A stretch of 32,000 nt of DNA. Source: Candidatus Saccharimonadota bacterium (GTDB lineage: Bacteria > Patescibacteriota > Gracilibacteria > BD1-5 > UBA2023). The notes under the pieces were generated by a model. The model searched no databases. It had not been told where the DNA came from and saw nothing but the letters and a program-made list of their open reading frames with translations. Below, piece by piece: positions 1,234 to 20,004 of this stretch. The stretch lies in assembly GCA_042852035.1 (NCBI GenBank), contig BAAFHK010000001.1, positions 180,001-212,000 of the forward strand, written 5' to 3'. The position numbers and the translations under genes are program-made. Numbering within the stretch: the first letter of the stretch is position 1; every line of letters begins with the position of its first letter.

Positions 1234-4200
1234 ATGCAAATCTGTTTTTCACCTCATAAATTCTTGAGGAAAGCAATATCTTCGGTACTCTTAGTTACTT
1301 TTTCAATCTCGTCCTTGCATCCAGTCTTTGCAGATTGAGAATGATTTCAATTTTATTCTACTGTCCTTAGGACGGCAGGAGTTATTGATAGGGACTATAT
1401 TTCAACAGCAGTAGCTACAAGCCGAATGGATGCGGTTCGTATAGCTGTTGGTATCTGATGATGGCCAAATGGATGTAGTGCTACTCCATCTCTTTCTTGT
1501 GATATTGAGTCAGTTGCACGATCAAGGGGACTGATTACAAGCGGACTTGAAAATATTAACCTCGGTCGCGTAATTAGGGCAAATGCTATCCGATTGGTTC
1601 TTCAGGCTCGAAAAATAAATCCATCTCAGAATCAGAGTTGATTTAAGGATGTGGATGGAAAACTTTCCAACTCGTATATAGGCTATATTGCAAAAGCTCG
1701 AGAGATAGGCTGTATTCAAACGGCTGAAAATTTTCGACCATTTGATCCAGTAACGGAAGGGGAGTATGCTAAGATGGCTGTATGCGCCATAGATGATAGT
1801 GAAAAGAATGGCACATTCAGCTCGGCACCAAATATAGCTCCTGCAACAAATCCAGTTGTATCATCACCTCAAAATGGAGCGGTCTATTATGTAGGATGAG
1901 GTTGAGGTTCTAGTACTACAATCATTAATAATGTTTATTCATCTTCAGGATTACTCCAAGATTTTACCTCTACTGGGGTAGCGAATTTTAATAATGTTAA
2001 CTTCTCTTGAAATGTGAGTTTTATTGGTCTTCCCAGTATGCCTCTTACGTTTGGATCTCTGCTTTATGGAAATAATTTAAATATTGCTACGGAGTTGCTC
2101 GGTTGATCAACAGGACAAGTTCTTAGTATGGCTAATGGTGTGCCAACTTGGGTAAGTATCGGCGCCCTTGGTTCTGCGACAGGATTGGTCTCATCAGTTT
2201 TTGGACGTTCGGGTGATATACTCTCCATGACGGGGGATTATTTATCAGATCAGATTATAGAATGATGAACAAATCTTTATTTTACTGATTCTCGAGCTCA
2301 GAATGCTCTTTCCTGAACGGTATCAACGATAAACACAACTCTTACGAATCTAACAAATGCAGTCAATGTGCTTTCGGGGGTTGTTGCAAGTTCTACCTGA
2401 ACGAATTATCAGCCTCAAATCGATACACTTTCTGGCCAAATTACTCATCTCAATAATCAGATTGTTATTTTTGCAGCTGCCCTTGCTCCGGTAATGCTTA
2501 CAGTGAATACATTCTCAGGAACTGTTTCACAGAATACTGCTGATATTGCGAGTCTTTCTTGAAAGGTTCTTGCACTCTCATGAGTTCTATCATCTCTTTC
2601 TGGTTCCGTCGATGTTCTTAGAAATGCTGTCGATAGCCTTTCCGGAGATCTTTCTACAACTAATGTGCTTGTTGCCAAAAATAGTGCAGATATATTTACG
2701 CTTTCTTGAAGAATAAATAGTAATACTATCTGACTCAACAGTCTCTCTGGTGCAGTTGAATTAATTGCTTCTGATGTTTCAATACTTCAGTCACAAGTGA
2801 GTGCTCTCCAATCTCAAGCACATGATGCAGTTACTCTTGGTAGCTCAAATGGATTGACGCTTTTAGGGCAACAACTCTCCCTTAATCTTGCCTCTTCAAC
2901 CTCGACTGGGGCACTTTCTGCATCTGATTGGAATACTTTCAATAATAAGATTGATTTTATATCACTCAGTGCAACAGGAGGTATTACCTACGATAATATT
3001 TCTGGTCTTTTTGGATGGAATGGAACAACATCTCTTGTTCCAGAATGATCTAACCTCTACTGGACTCAAAATAGATTCGATACAGCATTCTGATTGAAAA
3101 CTACTGATAATCTCAACGAGGGAGTATCCAATCTTTATTTTACAAACTCTCGAGCCCAAAATGCTCTTTCAGGGGCGATAAATAGCCTCTCAGGAAACCT
3201 TATTCTTACGAGCTCAAATCTTTCAACTCTCACATCTCAAGTTACATTGCTTTCATGGGGAATTATTGCTGTTGATACTGCTATCTGATCTCTTTCTGGT
3301 CAAGTAAATACAAATACGAATCATATAGCTTCACTTTCTGGTAATTTAGCAACCCTTAATACGTCACTATCAAGTCTCTCAGGAAATCTTTCAGTTCTTA
3401 GTAGCTCATTTTTAAGTCTTTCTGGAACGGTTGCACAAAATTTAGTTAACATTAACTCTCTTTCTTGATGACTCAACCTCACAAATGATTCCTTAAATAC
3501 TCTTTCTGGAACAATTATTAGTCTTTCTGGAGTAGTATCGTCTCTCTCGAATCAGCTCCAAAACCTTGGTAATGAGTTAAATAATCTTTCATGATCTGTG
3601 CTTTCTACGAATGCAAACCTTTCATCACTTTCATGAGTGGTAAATAGCATTTCTGGAAATCTCCTTGCACTTTCAAATTCGGTAAATAGTCTTTCGGGAA
3701 CAGTTCAAAATGTTATAGCTAGTGTTGTTTGATTATCTGGTTCTCTCGCTAACACCAACTCAAGTCTTAATACTCTTTCTGGTACAGTTTCAAGTAATTT
3801 TGCTACTCTTTCATGAAATCTTCTCACAACAAATAACATTATCTCTTCTCTCTCATGAGTTGTAAGTACTCTTTCGAGCAATCTTTATTCACTTTCGGGT
3901 GTTGTAGCTCAAAATACCATTGATATATCATCACTTTCATGAAATCTTTCGCTTACGAATTCTCGACTACTTTCACTTTCTTGAGTGGTGGCCCAAAATT
4001 CTCTTAGTATAAACTCTCTCTCAGGAAATCTCAATACCACCAATACAAACCTGGGTACTACCAATGCAACTGTAGCTTCTCTCTCAGGAAAGCTCAACAC
4101 TACCAATTCCTATCTTGCTACCGCAACAGGAAACATCAGTACTCTTACAAGTAATCTTGCAACTACCAATTCCTATCTTGCTACCGCAACAGGAAACATC

Positions 4201-7200
4201 AGTACTCTCACGACAAATCTTAATACTACCAATGCAACTGTAGCTTCTCTCTCAGGAGTAGTAAATACAAAGATATCTCTCACATCACTCTCTGCAAACT
4301 GACCTCTCACATATAACAATACAAATGGAGTGTTTGCGATATCTCTTGCAAACTCTACAACTACTGGTGCTCTCTCTGCTACAGATTGGAATACCTTCAA
4401 CAACAAACTCAACCTCTCTTCACTCCTCACTGGATTTGTTGCTGGATCATGAACGGTAACTGCTACAGATTCTCTCTTAGGTGCTCTTCAAAAACTCCAA
4501 GGAACCAATACAGCACAAGATACCAATATTGGTGCTCTCACAACAAACCTTGCAACCACGAATGCAACTGTAAACTCCCTCTCAGGAGTAGTAAATACAA
4601 AGATATCTCTCACATCACTCTCTGTAACTGGCTGATTCCTAACGTATAGTACTTGAACTTGAATATTCGGAACTAACTTTGCAGCTCTCTCTTGATCATA
4701 TTGGGCCCTCTGAGGTAATCCAGTTACATCAGTTCAAAATATCGGTACTACTACAAATTTTGATTTAGCATTTATTACGAACAATACTGAGTGGATGAGA
4801 CTTTCTACTGGATGAGTTCTGGGTCTTCGTACAACAGCAACAAACACACTTGCTTGATTTAATACGAATGCACTTGAATTTTGGGATAATGACGGACTTC
4901 ACTCTGATTTTACGCAGCGAGTAGCCTGAGGAGGATGGTGAACTTATAATATTCTTGCTCAGTGATGAACTATAGCATTACCAACTATTGTTGCTGCAGA
5001 ATCAACAGTTTGAGAATATACTTATGGATGATACGACTGAAGCGCATTTCGTCTCTTAGCTAGGGTTTCTGCTCAAGTGGATGGTACACCAGGACTAAAT
5101 AGTATGCCATGACGACTCGTCTTTAGTACTACGCCTTCGGGTTCCACTACACCACTAGAAAGAATGAGGATTACCAATGCGGGAAATATTGGTATCGGCG
5201 TAACAACAACAACGGCAAAATTTGATATTGCTGATAGTACCATTTCTACATGAGTACTTATGAAGCTTACAAGTGCTTGAATAACTGGTACATGATATGC
5301 ACTTCAGGTGATTGGTAGTGGCTCACGAAATCTTCTAAGAATTGGACAAAATGGAACAGATCCTCTTGATATGGAACGAGTTACTATTGGTCAGTGAGGC
5401 GTCTCTTCCGCAAAACCAGAGTGACTTGCACGTGATCAGCTCTATGTATTTGGTCGCATAAATTCAAGCTGGAATATGTTCTGGGATGACTTTATGGTTC
5501 GAAGAAATAATGCAGTTCAAACTAATGATGGGAATTTTAACGGAAGCCTCTATTTCGATGATGTAACTGGTGGTGGCGCTGCTGTTGGTTGGCAAGTCGA
5601 TGTTGTATCAAGCTTAGGAGTTTCTTGAATCGCTAGACTCAACACCCAAACTACAGGAGCATGATTCAATTCTTGGCTTATGTCATCTTCTAATGTGACT
5701 CAGCGGTCGCTTAATCCAGTATTTGAAGCTCGAATACTCGGAACAAATACTGCAAACCATATGATTATGGCTTGATTCTCAAACGGTGTCGTATGATGAA
5801 CATGGACAGCAGATGCAACATATAGTGCATTAACAAATGGAGCATTCTTCCGTAAAAATGCCGCCACTGGGGTGTGGTCAACCGTAACAAGAGCTTGATG
5901 AGTGGAAACCGTGAATAATACGACAATGTCAACAAATGTGTATCGTACACTCAGGATTGAACTGAATAATACAGCTGGAACAGCATCATTCTATATTGAT
6001 GGAGTGCTACAGTTTACTCACGCACTTAATGTTCCTGCAGCTACAACAGTAATGTGATATGGTGTAGGTACATCTATGACTGTAGCGACAGCTGGGCTAA
6101 CAGTAGATATTGATTACATCCGAGTATGGTCTGATGATCCACCTGATACCGCTCTAACAATAAATACAAGCCCTACATTAAGTGCCTCATACGTTACACC
6201 TTATAAAATTGAAGATTCATTTGAATTTAAAAATGCTCAATCAATTATACTTTCTTTATGAAATATAATTTCATCAACTTGATCGTTTGATTCTACAAAA
6301 AATCTTACATGAGATAATGCTATGAGCGCTGAAGATACTGGTAATTATTTTGCTCGAACAATTAAGACGGCTCTTGAATCACTCACATGATCAAATACAA
6401 ATACTACAGTTGATGCTAAGGTAGTAAATACCGAGAAACTTTGTATCGAATGAAACTGTTATCAAAGTGGCGAAATTGTTACAGGCGATATGTTAAGATG
6501 AGCACTGAGTAACATTACACCAGTTGTAAATAATTATTCAACTACTGTGGTTACAGAATCTGCCACGTCTTGATCAGATCAAGTTCAATCTCCTTTATCA
6601 CAAGAAGATCAGAGTGTGCTAGATATGCTTCGAGCATCAGTTGATTCACTCTTCGTAGAAATTCGAACAGTCTTTACTGATTTAGTTACATTTACTCGAG
6701 CGGTTATCTTTGAGAGTATTGTTACATTTAAGGATAAGGTGATTTTTGAAGCTCGTGTTACCTTCTCTGATCCAGATATGGCATGAGTCGCGACTATTGG
6801 CGCAGGATCAAAGACAGTTCATGTTCATTTTGATAGGCCTTATTCTGTAAAGCCAATCGTAACGATTGCTTCTACAGGTCATTTCAAGCTTTGAACCCTT
6901 AAGAATTTGACCACAAATGGATTTGATATAGAGGTGGCAACAAGTACTGAAACTCCACTTTGATTTAATTGGATTGCACTTGAGGTAAGGGGAGCGGGGA
7001 ACACTCTATCAATCTCAACAGTTTCAGATTCGCAAGATCAGGAACTAACAGATACTCCTCTAGTAAATCCTCAAGAAGAAAGCTCTGATATCTCCTCTCA
7101 AACAGGATCTGTAAATACGGGAGATGGAGTAGAGTGATCTTGAAATACAGATTCTTGATTATTATCACAGCCTGTAGATGAAACTTCCAATTGAGCAACA

Positions 7201-7362
7201 TCATTACCAGATACATCTACCTGAAGTGGGGAAGTGCTCTCAGAATCAGTAGATACAACACAATCACCAGCAGTTACTCCTTCAGAAATCCAAGTCGAAA
7301 CATCAACAGGAGAGAGTATTCCGGTTGAACCTCCGGTAGATACCGTATCATGAGAAATATAA
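1234..7362 (+). CDS. giant (2042 aa) secreted repeat-rich surface/fibre protein: signal peptide, SLH-like segment, LSGNL-type repeat rod, LamG/jelly-roll-like domain, acidic S/T/E/P tail
   Basis: - One frame-1 ORF under code 25. About 75 in-frame TGA and no TAA/TAG by my reading.
- Track fragments 1651-1899, 2797-3048, 3094-3288, 3985-4302 and 6076-6261 are all in this frame, and each ends at TGA.
- N-terminus MQICFSPHKFLRKAISSVLLVTFSISSLHPVFA.
- SLH-like FKDVDGKLSNSYIGYIAKAREIGCIQTAENFRPFDPVTEGEYAKMAV.
- About 2.4 kb of LSGxL/LSGxV...N..L periodic repeats.
- Two TTGALSA(S/T)DWNTFNNK modules.
- YRTLRIELNNTAGTASFYIDGVLQF...LTVDIDYIRVW near 5940-6130.
- TAA 7360-7362 followed by a terminator. 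Confidence 0.85.
4099..4224 (+). repeat. 63-bp (21-codon) tandem duplication inside the giant gene
   Basis: Copies at 4099-4161 and 4162-4224. The first 46 nt are identical (actaccaattcctatcttgctaccgcaacaggaaacatcagtactct), then a few substitutions. Encodes TTNSYLATATGNISTLT(S/T)NL(A/N). Confidence 0.9.
4249..4624 (+). repeat. dispersed exact 46-bp repeat pair inside the giant gene (4249-4294 and 4579-4624), 330 bp apart
   Basis: ctctcaggagtagtaaatacaaagatatctctcacatcactctctg occurs identically twice. The flanking aatgcaactgta is also shared (4231-4242 / 4561-4572). Confidence 0.9.
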
Positions 7363-7364
7363 AA

Positions 7365-7391
7365 ATATCCCTCGGAAAGAGGGATTTTTTT
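7365..7391 (+). terminator. rho-independent terminator of the giant gene
   Basis: Stem ATCCCTC (7367-7373), loop GGAAA, stem GAGGGAT (7379-7385), then a T-run. Confidence 0.8.
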
Positions 7392-7430
7392 ATAAAGCTA
7401 TAATTCTCTCTTTCGTGAAGAGCAAAAGCC

Positions 7431-7488: not shown

Positions 7489-7911
7489 ATGTTTACACGT
7501 CCAAACCTTTCTTGAGTTACAGCTGCCGGTGCTATTGTGATAGCATGGATAGTCTTTACTACCTTATACTTCCTTCTTTCTGTAACATACCCTCTTGTGG
7601 TTGGTAAGACTCAAAGTGCCGCAATACAGGCAGCTCAAGTCCAAGGATACAATACTGCAGTATCTCAGGCAATGCAGACTTTTTCAGGAAATGTGTTCCA
7701 GAATGGATATGGAAAGGCGGTTCTCGATCTTGCGAGTGCTCTCGATGCACAACTTAAATGAGGATGTAAGGAGATTGTACCTATCCAAATCGGATCAGGG
7801 GCAATGGGGGTTGTAAATGTTGCTTGTATTCAGCAGGCTGCAGCATGAGCTCAAGAGCAAAAAGCTACAACACCAAATCCAGCACCAAATCCAGCACCTG
7901 CACAGAAATAA
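7489..7911 (+). CDS. 140-aa membrane-anchored hypothetical protein with PNPAPNPAP tail
   Basis: ATG 7489, TAA 7909-7911, three in-frame TGA. MFTRPNLSGVTAAGAIVIAWIVFTTLYFLLSV... (one TM helix), then a Q/A-rich soluble part with two Cys. Terminator follows. Confidence 0.6.
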
Positions 7912-7914
7912 TAA

Positions 7915-7939
7915 ATACCTCCTTTCGGAGGTTTTTTTA
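7915..7939 (+). terminator. rho-independent terminator
   Basis: Stem ACCTCC (7917-7922), loop TTTC, stem GGAGGT (7927-7932), then T7. Confidence 0.8.
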
Positions 7940-8017: not shown

Positions 8018-8093
8018 GCGGGTGTAGCTCAATGGCTAGAGTCTCTGCCTTCCAAGCAGACTGTTGTGGGTTCGAGTCCCATCGCCCGCTCCA
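8018..8093 (+). tRNA. tRNA-Gly(UCC): tRNA-Gly (anticodon UCC), CCA encoded
   Basis: Manual cloverleaf: acceptor GCGGGTG/CGCCCGC, anticodon stem TCTGC/GCAGA, loop C-T-TCC-A-A, T-loop TTCGAGT, 3' TCCA. Confidence 0.9.
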
Positions 8094-8134
8094 TATTGGA
8101 ATTCCTCTACAATCCAGGAATTTTTTCTTTATAC

Positions 8135-8211
8135 GGGCGTATAGCTCAGCTGGTTAGAGCGCAGCACTGATAATGCTGAGGTCCCTGGTTCAAGTCCAGG
8201 TACGCCCACCA
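8135..8211 (+). tRNA. tRNA-Ile(GAU): tRNA-Ile (anticodon GAU), CCA encoded
   Basis: Acceptor GGGCGTA/TACGCCC, anticodon stem CAGCA/TGCTG, loop C-T-GAT-A-A, T-loop TTCAAGT. Confidence 0.9.
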
Positions 8212-8223
8212 TTTGTTTTTTTT

Positions 8224-8300
8224 CGGAGACTGGCGCAATTGGCTAGCGCACATGCTTTGGGAGCATGGGGTTGCGAGTTCGAGTCTCGCGTCTCCGACCA
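8224..8300 (+). tRNA. tRNA-Pro(UGG): tRNA-Pro (anticodon UGG), CCA encoded
   Basis: Acceptor CGGAGAC/GTCTCCG, anticodon stem CATGC/GCATG, loop T-T-TGG-G-A, T-loop TTCGAGT. Confidence 0.9.
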
Positions 8301-8355
8301 TTTGGTTTCTTAGATTCGTTTCCCTAGATCGCCCTTGCAATGCAAGAATAATTTT

Positions 8356-8430
8356 GGCGCTATCGTCTAGTGGTTAGGACAGCGGGTTTTCATCCCGTAA
8401 ACCGGAGTTCGATTCTCCGTAGCGCTACCA
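8356..8430 (+). tRNA. tRNA-Glu(UUC): tRNA-Glu (anticodon UUC), CCA encoded
   Basis: Acceptor GGCGCTA/TAGCGCT (G1-U72), Glu-type short D arm GTCT..GGAC, anticodon stem GCGGG/CCCGT, loop T-T-TTC-A-T, T-loop TTCGATT. Confidence 0.85.
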
Positions 8431-11966: not shown

Positions 11967-12629
11967 ATGATTACTCTGAAGCATATTGCAAAAACCTATA
12001 TTTCAAGGGGTGAAAAGGTAGAGCTTTTTCAAGATCTTTCTTGGGAAATCCAAAAATGATCGTGGGTTGCTCTCATGGGGGCAAGTTGAGCTGGAAAATC
12101 TACTCTTTTATCGCTTATTGCAGGGATACAAAGTCCAGATGCCTGAGAAATATATCTTTCTGATACAAACATTACTGATTTTACTCGCGATGCAATGACC
12201 GAATATCGCGGAAAGCATATTGCTTTTATTTTTCAGGCCTTTGAGCTCATTCCGAATCTTACCGTGAGTGAAAATATCGACCTCGTTTTGGATATCTCTA
12301 AAGCAGAAAGGAGATACGAGTCGGAAGTAATACTTGAAAAAGTGTGACTGAAATGAAAGGGGAATCGCTATCCGAATGAGCTTTCTTGAGGGGAACAGCA
12401 ACGAGTCGCTATCGCTCGAGCCTTTGTTTCTAAAGTTCCGTTTCTCTTTGCAGATGAGCCAACGGGGAATCTTGATGAAAAAAATGCAGAAAAAATCATG
12501 AGCCTTATCCGAGATCTCCATGAGGAAACAAAAAATACCATCATTATGATTACTCATGATCCATGAGTCGCGAGCCATGCAGATGCTATTTTTCGACTTT
12601 CATGAGGTACTTTAATGAAAGATAAATAA
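11967..12629 (+). CDS. ABC transporter ATP-binding protein (LolD/MacB/FtsE-like)
   Basis: Walker A GASGAGKST (TGA 12087-12089 is the 4th residue). Q-loop FIFQAF. Signature LSGGEQQR (TGA 12387-12389). Walker [14 protein letters not shown]-loop ITHD. TAA 12627-12629. Confidence 0.9.
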
Positions 12630-12631
12630 AT

Positions 12632-15010
12632 ATGTATACCCTCTTCACTCGCATTATCCTTTCGAATTGGCGATCTATACTCGTTCTCTTTCTTGTTCTC
12701 ATCTTTTCTGGCACGAGTTTTCTCACGCTCAGAGAGGTTACGACGAATGTTGATGCTTTTGTGATTTCGAAAACAAAACCCCTCTTTTGAGCTGATATTC
12801 GTATCTCAGTGCGCAGTTATGCGAGTGGGGATATTTTCCCGATGATTGCACCGCTTCTCGTATGAGAGCAATTTCAGGTGAGTGAAAGGAGAGAGTTTTC
12901 GACGACCCTTTTTGATCGTGAAGGGAAGACCTGACTCCTCCAGGTTGTCGCCTATAGTGGGAGTTATCCACAGCGGGGAATACTCGAAACAGATCCTCTG
13001 AGAGAGTGAGGAAGTCTTCCTCGTGTCGCGGCCACTCCTGGACTCATCGAGAAATTCGCGAGTGGTGAGAAGCTCACCCTTGATGGCAGGCTCCTCGAAA
13101 TTACTCACTCGATCAAGGAATCGAGTGACCTCGGATTTTCTCTCGGAACAGAGAATCATCTCCTTATTCTCCCGAGTGAACTCCTCCTCGGATCTTCGCT
13201 CCTTTCTTCCTGATCTCGACTCGATCAGGATCTCCTCCTCTCGTTTAGAGATGAATGAAGGACGAAGATTATTGCTGAAAAAATCAAAGAAGTACTCCCA
13301 GAAAATATCTATAGAGTGCGTACATTCGAAGAGCGAACGGAGAGAAATCTCGATACCGTCGACGCACTTACTGACTATATCACGCTCATCCTCCTTGTCT
13401 CAAGTATTTTTGCATTCATAATTCTCCGCTCCGCTCATGAAGGATTCTATGAGAGCCTCGCTCGTACTCTCCGTGTCGTCGAAATCCTCGGACTTACTCG
13501 GAGGCGAGAGCAGATGCTCCTTCTCTGGCTCTATGGATCTATTTTTCCGCTCTCATTTCTCGTATCGATCGGATTTTCATATGTGATTCTTACTATGATT
13601 CGCAGCTTTCCAGAGGCGAGTGATTTTACCTTTTATATAGCTACTATACCAGAGGCTCTTATCCTCCTCCTTCTTCTCGTGGTAATGGCGTGGTTTCCTA
13701 TTTGGTGGAAGCTCGGGAAAGATGAAAATAAATGAACAATTAAAGGACTCAAATCGTTCATTTTTAATTATCTCGTCCTCGATCGACTCCTCCCATTTTT
13801 CCTCGGACTCGTTGTCCTCTTTCTTCTTTTTTCTGACTGGAAATTCTCCCTCTTTGTATGAGCTGGAGCTGCACTGTTCTTTCTTATCTTCGGATATCTC
13901 CTCGGTCTCATCTATCGAGCCATTTTTTCACTTTCGAAGTGACTCAGAGGATGATATTTTCCTTTCTATGACGCGATTCGTACTCTTGTGCGACCCCTCA
14001 CTCCGACCATCCCGATTACGATTTCTCTCGTCTCTATCACAGTATTTTTCCTCGTTTTTGTGAGTTTTTCCCTTGCATTTCGATCGAAACTTCAGATTGA
14101 CTCGACGAATACTGCCAATATCTACGCCATTAACATCCTCGAAGGGGATAAGGAAAAAATCGAAGCCCTCAAGAGTGAAAATTCCCTCATGTATGATATC
14201 CTCAGAGCTCGCGTCATACAGATAAATGGAAACACTCTGGAAAAACACTTCTCGACCGATCGAGTGAGTGGGGAATTCACGAGAGAGTTCAATATCACGA
14301 CCACCCCTCTCGAGAATCGTATCCTCTCCTGAAAGAAAGTGATAGGGAAGTGAGAAGTATCCATCGATAATGACTTCAGTAAACGCATGAACCTCTCCAT
14401 CTGAGATCGAGTGACCTTCCTCCTCTCGGGGCGAGAGGTTACGCTCACGGTGGCAAATATCCGCGAATCCATCCGTGAAGGATTCCGACCATTTTTCTAT
14501 TTTTCTTTTGATCCAAACGAGTTCAGAAATGCTCCGCGCACCTACTTTCTCGCGGACAATGCTCCAGATACTGAAGCATGGAAAAAGTCTGTTCTTGCTG
14601 CTTCCTGACCGCACGTGACCTTCATCGATATCGAAAGTGTCCTCAAGATCGTGAGAGACATTTCTGCGAAAGTCTTCTCGATTATCGGACTCTTCTTCGC
14701 TATAGTATCTCTCTTCGCACTCGGGGCAATTATATCTTTCTTTACCCGACTGAGACCAATCGAAGAAATAAAACATAAACTCTATCATCTCTTTTGAGCG
14801 AATAAAAAAGAGATACAAACTTCACTTCGATGAGTTAGAATGGGTATTTTTTGAGTATCCTTTATTCTTTCGGCAATCCTTGGGTTCATTCTTTCATTTT
14901 TAATACTCTCTCGTTCAGGGTTTTTTCGATTTTCTGTTGGTGATTTTTTCTTTCTACTCAGTACGGCACTCATTCTTTATATTATATTAATAGTATCCCA
15001 GAAAAAATAA
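12632..15010 (+). CDS. 792-aa ABC transporter permease with two FtsX domains (YbbP-like)
   Basis: Frame-2 ORF joining track fragments 13316-13735, 13988-14332, 14411-14608 and 14615-14797. 17 in-frame TGA by my count. N-terminal TM then ...KPLFGADIRISV.... Two 3-4 helix FtsX-like hydrophobic blocks (about 13380-13720 and 14640-15000). TAA 15008-15010. Confidence 0.8.
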
Positions 15011-18696: not shown

Positions 18697-20004
18697 CTAT
18701 AATCCTCTTATCCATTCAGTCATTGTATCCCCAGCTCCTATCGGCCAACTATGAGGGTCTCCTCAATATGCTGAATATCCCTTACAATAAATAACAGGAT
18801 TTCCACTCGAACAATCTTTCCACTTTTCACAAGAAATATTCCCTATCTGGATTGTCTCCTTTTCATTTCCGCAAAGATTGATAGATTTCATTTTTGATTC
18901 AGTTGCACGAGCAGTACTTGGTGGAGAGAGTGTATCGTTCTCATTTTGATAGATGAGAGCTGCCGTCGGAGTGTTGTTGCAGATTGAGCTATAACCTCCT
19001 CCCCCAACAATCGACATGGAACGAAAAATATCTCCCCGAGTACAGGCAAGTTTCGATGCAAACCATGCTCCAAGAGAATGTGCTACTATATGAATATTAT
19101 CACGATCTATGCATTGTTTATCAGTTACATCACGTAGGATTGTATCGACAAAGTTGATATTTTCTTCATTTGACCAACTATAAGCATTTCCATTTGGAAG
19201 TCATGCAGGATAAGCAACTATAAAATCACTTTTATTTTCGAGTCACATATAATTTTGCACCATGAGATTACTATTCGTACGCCCATGAATGGCAATAATA
19301 AATTTTGCTGGATTTGTGCTCGAATAGCTTCTTGGAACTGAGAGTATATAATTTCGAGTCTTTTCTCCTACAATAACTTGATAAGTTCCGCTCGTGAGAG
19401 GGTTTGTATTGGTACACCCTTTTGAGATATTCGTGAGAGGATTTTTATTCTTACTATATTCTCTTATACGCAGTATCATATCAGCTGCTTTTCCTCGAGT
19501 CATAAGAGTGTGTATATTGTAACTCGATGTATCGAGAATATTATTGGCACCAGCGAGATTTTGATAGGTTGTATACCAGGGACTTCCATTTTCCGGAGCA
19601 ATACCATAGAGTCGTAGAGACATAGCAAGCGCTTCTATGACAGTTACTGGACTGTTTGGTTTGAAGGTTCCATCGGAGAAACCTTTTACTACCCCGAGTT
19701 TTACTGCTTCACAGACGTATGGCTGATACCACATAGATCGCTTGATATCCTTGAAACACTCGATATCTTTATCAAGATTCTCACTATTAATATTTTTACT
19801 TCGCAGTAAGACTTTCAGTAGTTCTGCTCGAGTGATTGTATTATCAGGTCAGAATTTCCCATTACTATATCATGTGATGATTCCTTCATTCAAGAGAGTG
19901 TTTATGGAATCTCTATAAAATGAAAGCTCAGTATCTCTAAAGTCTAGAGCCAAAGAATAAGAGGGAATGCATAGAAGTAAGAAAAATAAAACAACTTTTT
20001 TCAT
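18697..20004 (-). CDS. 435-aa secreted protein: two SLH-like domains plus an alpha/beta-hydrolase esterase (PHB-depolymerase/LpqC-type)
   Basis: - Signal MKKVVLFFLLLCIPSYSLA.
- SLH-like FRDTELSFYRDSINTLLNEGIITGYSNGKFGPDNTITRAELLKVLL and FKDIKRSMWYQPYVCEAVKLGVVKGFSDGTFKPNSPVTVIEALAMSL.
- Esterase part RNYILSVPRSY...KFIIAIHGRTNS...IHIVAHSLGAW...GGDPHSWP.
- I checked the in-frame triplets over 19021-19260 and 19741-20004 and found no TAA/TAG. Confidence 0.8.

Follow-up and report, generated by a model that had tools for sequence, protein, structure and literature searches.

A putative wall-anchored attachment fibre with phage tail-fibre-type modules in the Zoogloea-associated, code-25 bacterium HHAS10

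Introduction

In Bdellovibrio, the mosaic adhesive trimer (MAT) fibres Bd1334, Bd2133 and Bd2439 have been demonstrated experimentally to be trimeric; they are located on the surface of the predator and carry exchangeable adhesive tips (PMC10769870). Their invariant N-terminal surface-attachment domain has no homologue in the Protein Data Bank (PDB) (PMC10769870, Caulton et al. 2024). For the Patescibacteria, or candidate phyla radiation (CPR), the literature on how a host is recognized and held deals mainly with type IV pili and with generic "giant surface proteins". For the Absconditicoccaceae, there are general mentions of large surface proteins, concanavalin A (ConA) domains and SLH proteins (the last in PMC13059738), and glycan-binding envelope proteins are essential in a Saccharibacterium. 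Here, we analyse a gene of 2,042 codons at positions 1234-7362 of a 32-kb stretch of contig BAAFHK010000001.1 (hereafter the window), whose product resembles both MAT fibres and phage tail fibres. In the literature searched, we came across neither phage-tail-fibre-like nor MAT-like fibres of the CPR, nor the ConA-like fibre module reported below, nor the variable locus adjacent to rsmG in which the gene lies.

The neighbouring proteins of the window for which database matches were found belong to the metagenome-assembled genome (MAG) HHAS10, "Candidatus Altimarinota bacterium", and are encoded on a contig of 750 kb. HHAS10 is a member of class JAEDAM01, formerly placed within Gracilibacteria/BD1-5, and its cells are activated-sludge cocci less than 0.5 µm across (PMC11393006). 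Fluorescence in situ hybridization always located these cells inside Zoogloea clusters, where adjoining Zoogloea cells gave a dimmer signal; HHAS10 also forms loose clusters of its own within the flocs, and its Zoogloea host is embedded in exopolysaccharide (PMC11393006). The genome description discusses type IV pili, ComEC, M23 peptidases and a polyhydroxyalkanoate (PHA) depolymerase, and the fibre protein is not among them (PMC11393006). An original prediction, made from the letters of the DNA alone, had proposed that the gene encodes a repeat-rod surface protein of a reduced CPR bacterium, either an attachment fibre or a component of an S-layer. Its guess at the lineage agrees with the source: HHAS10 belongs to the Patescibacteria/CPR, uses code 25 and is documented in association with a host.

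Results

We consider it probable that the product of the 1234-7362 gene is a wall-anchored, glycan-binding attachment fibre, itself probably trimeric, of the Zoogloea-associated HHAS10. Of the two options originally proposed, the attachment fibre appears to be the better one; there is no sign of a lattice-forming S-layer protein. The six architectural features of the original prediction (signal peptide, SLH-like segment, periodic rod, two tail-fibre-type modules, ConA-like signature and acidic tail) were each located, with the rod and SLH claims refined as described below, and we identified two further domains, a MAT-type beta-helix and a lectin-like tip.

Reading frame and genetic code

Frame +1 of positions 1234-7362 (plus strand) is a complete open reading frame (ORF) of 2,042 sense codons, 75 of which are TGA; its sole TAA is the terminal codon, and re-inspection found no internal TAA or TAG. 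The remaining five frames contain 27-136 TAA/TAG codons each, and given that 4.4% of the off-frame codons are TAA or TAG, a run of this length would stay open by chance with a probability of ~3e-40. Translated with table 11, the same region breaks into pieces, the longest of which has 105 amino acids (aa; 3985-4302). The proposal of a single 6.1-kb gene that is invisible under the standard code is thus borne out.

TGA encodes glycine (code 25) in the window, as three independent lines show. In the 33 LSG motifs of the fibre, the glycine is written TGA in 12 and GGN in 21. In standard-code homologues, the columns corresponding to the TGA codons of the query hold glycine in 41.6% of cells (background 7.8%) and tryptophan in 0.7%, and in four of them glycine is fully or almost fully conserved. 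Finally, the code-25 translations of four neighbouring genes with in-frame TGA are identical to the NCBI proteins GAB0174307, GAB0174312, GAB0174317 and GAB0174318; the locus tags for matched neighbour proteins are HHAS10_01860, _01960 and _01970. Using Codetta, the authors of the HHAS10 genome likewise inferred that UGA is read as glycine (PMC11393006). An exact look-up of the full 2,042-aa fibre in the protein collection gave no entry; the deposited start is perhaps different. Code-25 homologues are damaged in public protein sets: P0002 and P0003 are code-4 translations with W in place of G, while others (among P0121 and P0132-P0138) are short code-11 fragments ending at a TGA, for example in the GGGGG linker. 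Because its homologues are shattered or mistranslated, this fibre family is easy to miss in databases.

Secretion signal and wall anchor

The N-terminus has the pattern of a Sec-type signal peptide (aa 1-33; positions 1234-1332, +), with K9, R12 and K13, a hydrophobic stretch at 14-28, and V-F-A followed by D. This layout is kept in orthologues, in which the (V/I/A)-x-A site falls in the same alignment column, which agrees with the predicted secretion signal. The following region, aa 36-186 (1339-1791, +), is the putative wall anchor. Over this region, identity reaches 49-63% with the clear relatives P0132-P0137 and 41% with P0138, and two cysteine pairs, 81/89 and 160/184, are conserved. Cysteines occur as pairs in the fibre and therefore point to an extracellular protein.

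Within the anchor region, a Pfam SLH motif (PF00395) was identified at aa 137-179 (1642-1770, +). The full profile is covered, with a score of 23.5 bits on the N-terminal tile against a cut-off of 20.8; scored over the whole fibre, the same motif reaches 19.6 bits and falls under the cut-off. At the same position, orthologues score 25.5, 23.8, 20.6 and 19.7 bits, and two have no match. Two further SLH-like stretches upstream of aa 137 end in 'TSRMDA' (orthologues 'ITRA(H/D)A') and 'IRANA', respectively, and are recognizable by pattern only; the self-similarity of these extra copies was insignificant with hhalign, a weak test in which even the accepted motif scored poorly against canonical SLH. 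The SLH-like segment of the original prediction is retained, with a single motif that reaches the Pfam threshold on the N-terminal tile. SLH anchoring is in use in this organism, as another exported protein of the window (18697-20004) has canonical SLH domains. No csaB gene, for a pyruvylated secondary cell-wall polymer, was found within the 32-kb window.

The anchor is followed by an S/T/P stretch with a GGGGG linker (aa ~187-230, from 1792, +) and by a beta-rich start of the shaft (aa ~231-345, to 2268, +), with the motifs 'GSTGQVL..G.PTW' and 'SVFGRSGDI...EGGTNLYFTDSRAQ'. These motifs recur in the homologues P0003, P0004, P0008, P0010, P0011 and P0029. The region also carries 'EG.NLYFT..R'; like the other two motifs in their general forms 'G..GQVL....W' and 'SVFGR.G.I', it is common in fibre proteins.

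Coiled-coil rod and knots

The long rod of LSGNL...N...L repeats noted in the original prediction was confirmed as periodic. Its LSG motifs are spaced by 7, 14, 21, 35, 42 or 56 residues, with three off-heptad steps (19, 11, and a gap of 141 residues that spans the first knot), and its hydrophobic periodicity is 3.5 residues (power 10.9). Based on a sliding-window analysis of this periodicity, 472 residues, all proline-free, lie in windows above the 99th percentile of shuffled sequences. They fall in two segments, the first with heptad-periodic stretches at aa 346-393, 435-482 and 489-540 (2269-2853, +), and the second at aa 639-1010 (3148-4263, +), which includes 29 unbroken heptads at aa 645-848. 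In these 29 heptads, one core position is L, V, I or F throughout (28 times L, V or I), the second core position is hydrophobic in 80%, and the non-core positions are rich in S, T, N, G and Q. By this pattern, the rod at aa 346-1010 is an alpha-helical heptad coiled coil, which refines the original description of the repeats; the alternative of a beta-helix, also raised there, is ruled out for the rod because the period is 3.5 and not 2. With a rise of 0.1485 nm per residue, these periodic segments would by themselves extend for ~70 nm.

Two knots interrupt the coiled coil. Knot 1, at aa 541-638 (2854-3147, +), consists of 'LASSTSTGALSASDWNTFNNK' followed by two 'EG.NLY(W/F)T..R' motifs, and knot 2, at aa 1011-1085 (from 4264, +), contains 'ANSTTTGALSATDWNTFNNK' and is followed by a short repeat or coiled stretch to aa ~1144 (position 4665). 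Both include the predicted 'TTGALSA(S/T)DWNTFNNK' modules, whose DWNTFNNK motifs are located at aa 559 and 1045. Their likening to tail-fibre repeats agrees with the distribution of the module, which has 201 confirmed relatives in viral contigs with identities of up to 72%. In one of these contigs, a portal gene lies upstream, and the module protein ends like a long-tail-fibre or baseplate protein. Additionally, aa 578-656, the 'EG.NLYFT..R' part, match cyanophage tail-fibre and structural proteins (E 7e-7 to 5e-4). The module profile had no significant match in the PDB.

The DNA of the rod is itself repetitive. There is a 63-nt tandem duplication at 4099-4233, corresponding to exactly three heptads with 90% matches, a 103-nt repeat family at 4027, 4195 and 4525, and a 41-nt repeat encoding 'NLYFT.SRAQNAL' at 2272 and 3130. 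These intragenic repeats show ongoing duplication.

Beta-helix

A beta-helix region is located at aa 1145-1340 (4666-5253, +), with 'ERMRITNAGNIGIG' at aa 1309 and a degenerate copy, 'EWMRLSTGGVLGL', at about aa 1185. In phmmer searches against the PDB, aa 1237-1335 matched the Bdellovibrio fibre structures 8OML (Bd1334, E 1e-6), 8ON4 (3e-5), 8OND (Bd2133, 1.2e-3) and 8OL4 (Bd2439, 0.016). This MAT-type beta-helix, absent from the feature list of the original prediction, is common to ~100 of the 120 database matches listed. Peptidase_S74 was present in 39 of the 120 listed beta-helix homologues; in the fibre, Pfam scans of the whole protein and of its tiles found neither Peptidase_S74 or Peptidase_G2 nor any other chaperone domain.

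Distal domains

The distal part begins with a predicted ConA-like jelly roll of the SO2946-like/LamG type, aa 1361-1642 (5314-6159, +), which runs from 'LARDQLYVFGRINSSW' to 'DIDYIRVWSDDP'. We used AlphaFold2 (AF2) single-chain models of two homologues, P0122 and P0123, which are 36-39% identical to the fibre and whose alignments are shallow (27 and 9 sequences). The ConA-like module of P0122 (36-38% identical) was modelled as a beta-sandwich with a predicted local distance difference test (pLDDT) score of 86-97. Using Foldseek, its best match was SO2946 (2a5z; E 1.3e-8), and further matches included GH16 enzymes, legume and L-type lectins, and the binding domains of clostridial toxins (BoNT Hc); TM-scores on the target were 0.57-0.66. 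The best viral matches of the module were SO2946-like and Mtd_N-bearing fibre proteins of Caudovirales (E 8e-15). In Pfam scans of homologues, P0129 matched SO2946-like_C (31.2 against a cut-off of 27) and P0010 nearly reached Laminin_G_3 (27.5 against 27.6). The homologue model and these matches support a ConA-like jelly roll at this position, in agreement with the LamG/concanavalin-like signature originally proposed. The catalytic motif of GH16, E-x-D-x(x)-E, is absent from the fibre and from the family consensus; the corresponding strand reads 'LRIE(L/M/V)(N/D)(N/D)' and lacks the third acid. A GH16 enzyme was thus dropped as an identification of the domain.

The jelly roll is followed by a neck, aa 1643-1800 (6160-6633, +), which is helical in the homologue model and contains, within 'EKLC....C', a Cys-x4-Cys pair (C1737/C1742) kept in homologues. 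Beyond the neck, at 6634-6999 (+), beta-strand repeats of the form 'V.F...V.F' (aa ~1805-1845) lead into a putative H-type-lectin-like beta-sandwich (aa ~1850-1920), which the original prediction had not listed. Pfam H_lectin (PF09458) aligns with the query over profile positions 1-66 of 67 (E 0.004). In the AF2 model of the P0123 C-terminus, the core has a pLDDT of 83-97, and the top Foldseek matches of this tip were the Helix agglutinins (E 5e-4, TM-score ~0.55), followed by the receptor-binding domain of the cyanophage Pam1 tailspike, an octocoral H-type lectin, pyocin fibres and discoidin II. The protein ends in the predicted acidic S/T/E/D/P tail (aa 1925-2042; 7006-7359, +), 118 residues with a net charge of -22, no K or R, and 59% S/T/E/D/P; comparable tails are present in homologues.

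Scans of the whole fibre against Pfam and PHROG returned the SLH motif only, in addition to coiled-coil-type noise (DUF1664, ATG16 and a tail-needle family). No NCBIfam match was obtained with five tiles of the fibre, and PDB profile searches with the C-terminal region and the tip gave nothing significant.

Relatives and variation of the locus

The position of the fibre gene next to rsmG is kept in two further metagenomic contigs, L023 and L024; a third, L025, ends inside the gene. In L023, the flanking genes are 73% (rsmG) and 70% (the downstream 140-aa gene) identical to those of the window, whereas identity between the fibres falls to 41% in the first 1,000 aa and to 37% in the last 250 aa. 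At ~3,150 aa and with eleven DWNTFNNK motifs, the fibre of L023 is without the beta-helix and ConA part and has an unannotated module in their place, an instance of an exchangeable distal module on a conserved proximal part. This module (aa ~2400-2900) contains the conserved stretch 'GD.V......YD...IGIIST.PG...G......VGLAGRVPVKV'; it gave only an echo of Peptidase_G2 (E 0.027) and no PDB match. In the contig L106, the same anchor belongs to a fibre that is at least 2,892 aa long and is cut off by the contig end. Hence, with a conserved anchor, fibre lengths among these relatives are 2,042, at least 2,892 and ~3,150 aa. In L021, another code-25 organism, a member of ~1,270 aa has a ConA module 60% identical to that of the window, with a membrane anchor instead of SLH and no H-lectin end. 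By analogy, this pattern of a conserved anchor, a variable shaft and a replaceable distal part resembles that of phage receptor-binding proteins and MAT fibres.

Based on a survey of species-representative genomes, in which the source genome did not appear, the ConA-like module is present in MAGs of Gracilibacteria, Saccharibacteria (many), Nomurabacteria, Minisyncoccia and Magasanikbacteria, where it usually occupies the C-terminal third of proteins that measure 0.8-4.6 kaa. A search of 1.84 billion cluster representatives gave 49 matches at E<=1e-30 and 665 at E<=1e-10. Five loci from MAGs labelled Gammaproteobacteria or Pseudomonadales (L012, L014, L016, L018 and L019) also encode 1.9-2.4-kaa proteins with the module; these may reflect wrong labels, contaminated bins, or an occurrence of the module beyond the CPR.

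Genomic neighbourhood

The 32-kb window contains ordinary cellular genes: rsmG, four tRNA genes, genes for a spermidine-synthase-like membrane protein, a GDSL lipase, an ABC transporter, MsrAB and an MFS transporter, and others. No phage genes were found across it. Five nucleotides past the fibre stop codon, a terminator-like hairpin with a T-run begins (7367-7395, +; a consensus match only). Directly downstream lies a gene for a 140-aa membrane-anchored protein (7489-7911, +; GAB0174307.1), which has a transmembrane helix at its N-terminus and an end rich in Pro, Ala and Gln. A separate terminator-like hairpin (7917-7932) follows this gene, and L023 has a syntenic, 70% identical counterpart; the product may act as a partner of the fibre or help to assemble it. 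The four tRNA genes (8018-8430, +) are Gly(tcc), Ile(gat), Pro(tgg) and Glu(ttc); a UGA-reading tRNA-Gly(UCA) is absent from the 32-kb window.

The second exported SLH protein of the window, encoded at 18697-20004 (-), matches SLH canonically (Pfam E 5e-26), and its C-terminal half has the look of an alpha/beta hydrolase ('AHSLGAW' elbow; Abhydrolase_6 E 0.0099). A wall-anchored esterase is one possibility, and the PHA depolymerase considered in the genome description of HHAS10 is another. Reading TGA as sense also creates long, false ORFs antisense to real genes, as at 12368-14818 (-) opposite 12632-15010 (+); there, an 816-aa low-complexity ORF is antisense to a 792-aa ORF located directly downstream of the ABC ATPase gene, the latter with a membrane-protein-like sequence and no Pfam match. 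Such ORFs are a trap for gene callers on the HHAS10 genome.

Discussion

Comparison with described fibres and surface proteins

The fibre shares with the MAT fibres the sequence homology of its beta-helix, including the 'ERMRI..GN(V/I)GIG' motif, the character of a long surface fibre on a bacterium living at the expense of other bacteria, variable lectin-type tips that are not S74, and the exchange of distal modules between relatives. It differs from them in its anchor, an SLH-type module conserved in JAEDAM01-type relatives rather than the invariant MAT N-terminal domain, in a shaft that is predicted to be mostly alpha-helical coiled coil, and in a distal part made up of ConA-like, H-type-lectin-like and acidic segments. 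Moreover, it is encoded by a CPR bacterium with code 25, and its trimeric state and binding are putative. Judging from its N-terminus, strict membership in the MAT family is unlikely.

The likeness to phage tail fibres and tailspikes extends over several modules: 'EG.NLYFT..R', the DWNTFNNK knot, the ConA/SO2946-like domain and the terminal beta-sandwich. The comparators are T4-like cyanophage fibres, the Pam1 tailspike (7EEA), R-type pyocin fibres (6CL6 and 6CT8) and SO2946-like fibre proteins of uncultured Caudovirales. The arrangement is also similar, with N-terminal attachment, a C-terminal binding end and modular shuffling. Unlike these proteins, the HHAS10 fibre is encoded by a stand-alone cellular gene with a signal peptide and a wall anchor, and it has no virion-attachment domain, phage neighbours or intramolecular chaperone.

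As in SLH surface proteins, such as the S-layer proteins SbsB and Sap of monoderm-type bacteria and those noted in the related Absconditicoccaceae (PMC13059738), a signal peptide precedes an SLH-type region, and the same genome encodes a canonical SLH protein; in HHAS10, however, there is one motif at threshold, and the rest of the protein is a fibre and not a lattice-forming domain. The trimeric autotransporter adhesins UspA1 and YadA and the P22 gp26 needle offer another parallel, a long polar coiled-coil stalk with adhesive heads. The similarities of the fibre to UspA1 (E 0.1), gp26 (E 0.24) and the PHROG tail-needle family (E 3e-4) amount to a resemblance in coiled-coil composition and lack significance, and the fibre is without the autotransporter beta-barrel anchor. 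Known H-type lectins are trimeric binders of GalNAc or GlcNAc. The agglutinins of Helix pomatia and H. aspersa, discoidin II and SLL-2 provide the best fold matches of the terminal domain, and Pfam H_lectin aligns with the query over its full length, but the Pfam score is sub-threshold and the TM-score is ~0.55.

Proposed mode of action

Homology and the anatomy of the protein suggest the following model. The N-terminus would be exported through the Sec pathway and cleaved after VFA, and the conserved SLH-type anchor would hold the fibre non-covalently on the cell wall. A glycine linker would lead into the coiled-coil shaft, punctuated by phage-type knots and continued by a beta-helix of the tail-fibre/MAT kind. 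Assembly as a homotrimer seems most likely, as for fibre-type modules elsewhere; we infer it because the beta-helix is of the MAT/tail-fibre type and because trimers are the usual state of H-type lectins. The order of the parts, namely secretion and anchoring, an oligomeric shaft, and then folds of the carbohydrate-binding type, is what would be expected of a fibre fixed N-terminally with its binding end distal. Since the coiled coil is ~70 nm long, the C-terminal part would lie far from a coccus of less than 0.5 µm, and the distal lectin-type domains would be projected at least ~70 nm from the cell. They comprise two putative lectin-type folds, the ConA-like jelly roll and the H-type-lectin-like sandwich, followed by an acidic disordered tail. 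The most likely ligands would be surface or extracellular glycans of Zoogloea, either lipopolysaccharide or floc exopolysaccharide, and their binding would mediate first contact or retention, like that of a phage tail fibre or a Bdellovibrio MAT fibre. The locus itself would evolve via the duplication of heptads and modules and the exchange of distal modules.

Several observations weigh against this model. There is a sole statistically supported SLH motif, in which the 'TRAE' position reads 'TEGE'. The composition of the coiled-coil core, L/V/I at a and L at d, does not alone favour trimers. The query tile of the jelly roll has no Pfam match at E<=1, the H_lectin match, at 17.7 bits, does not reach its cut-off of 24, and both structure models are of homologues, single-chain and built on shallow alignments. 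The true C-terminus is the acidic tail and not a lectin domain. Finally, CPR lineages whose hosts differ greatly have ConA-like modules of 31-50% identity. This conservation is above that expected of a host-specific receptor binder, so the module may bind something generic or serve assembly, and specificity may be left to other parts of the protein.

Alternative explanations

The same conservation of the ConA-like module, over Saccharibacteria, Nomurabacteria, Minisyncoccia and Gracilibacteria, would also suit a wall-anchored fibre whose task is not host recognition. Such a protein would form a fibrous coat of the cell itself or hold together sister cells or the floc matrix, with the ConA-like module serving assembly or binding a generic polymer, such as the cell's own wall or exopolysaccharide. 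The SLH-type anchor, the loose clusters that HHAS10 forms inside flocs and the description of Vampirococcus with a fibrous surface of giant proteins are in line with this explanation. We nevertheless regard it as unlikely. No lattice-forming S-layer domain was found in the fibre, all identifiable modules are of the receptor-binding-fibre type, and the shaft and distal part diverge much faster than the flanking genes, with a different distal module in one relative, a pattern typical of proteins under partner pressure.

The two remaining explanations start from the phage-like modules. If the jelly roll were a GH16-like glycanase or transglycosylase, or an esterase, the fibre could be tipped with an enzyme that cleaves exopolysaccharide or cell-wall glycan of the host, in the manner of phage depolymerase spikes. 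The host is indeed embedded in exopolysaccharide, and Foldseek matched GH16 beta-glucanases, carrageenases, the Crh5 transglycosylase and a phage carbohydrate esterase with E values of 1e-7 to 1e-6; the best matches, however, are non-catalytic (SO2946-like, LamG-type, lectins and toxin binding domains), and with the catalytic GH16 strand absent we hold an enzymatic tip to be quite improbable. It is very improbable that the gene is a tail-fibre gene of a phage, prophage or tailocin resident in the genome. Most of its modules are common to phage fibres and viral contigs, and many beta-helix homologues end in the Peptidase_S74 fibre chaperone, whereas the HHAS10 protein starts with a Sec signal peptide followed by an SLH-type wall anchor and carries no S74 or other chaperone domain. 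The 32-kb window is free of phage genes, its genes being rsmG, tRNAs, transporters and MsrAB, and the position adjacent to rsmG is kept in L023 and L024; a prophage origin was thus rejected on gene context.

Implications

The attachment fibre that we favour for HHAS10 may be one case of a wider phenomenon. The code-25 Patescibacteria of JAEDAM01, and the CPR more widely, including Saccharibacteria, might have adopted the phage tail-fibre kit for wall- or membrane-anchored host-range fibres at a conserved, fast-evolving locus adjacent to rsmG, adjusting shaft length via duplication and swapping lectin-type modules, such that the fibre, and not type IV pili alone, would decide the host. We put this forward tentatively, as a possible but rather doubtful extension. 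For HHAS10 itself, the fibre is a concrete candidate that can be dissected, in an organism whose host, Zoogloea, has been identified by microscopy. By homology, it ties CPR surface fibres to phage tail fibres and MAT fibres, which are experimentally established systems. Since the ConA-like module is also present in Saccharibacteria, a group with cultured and genetically tractable members, mutagenesis would be feasible if such strains carry a homologue.

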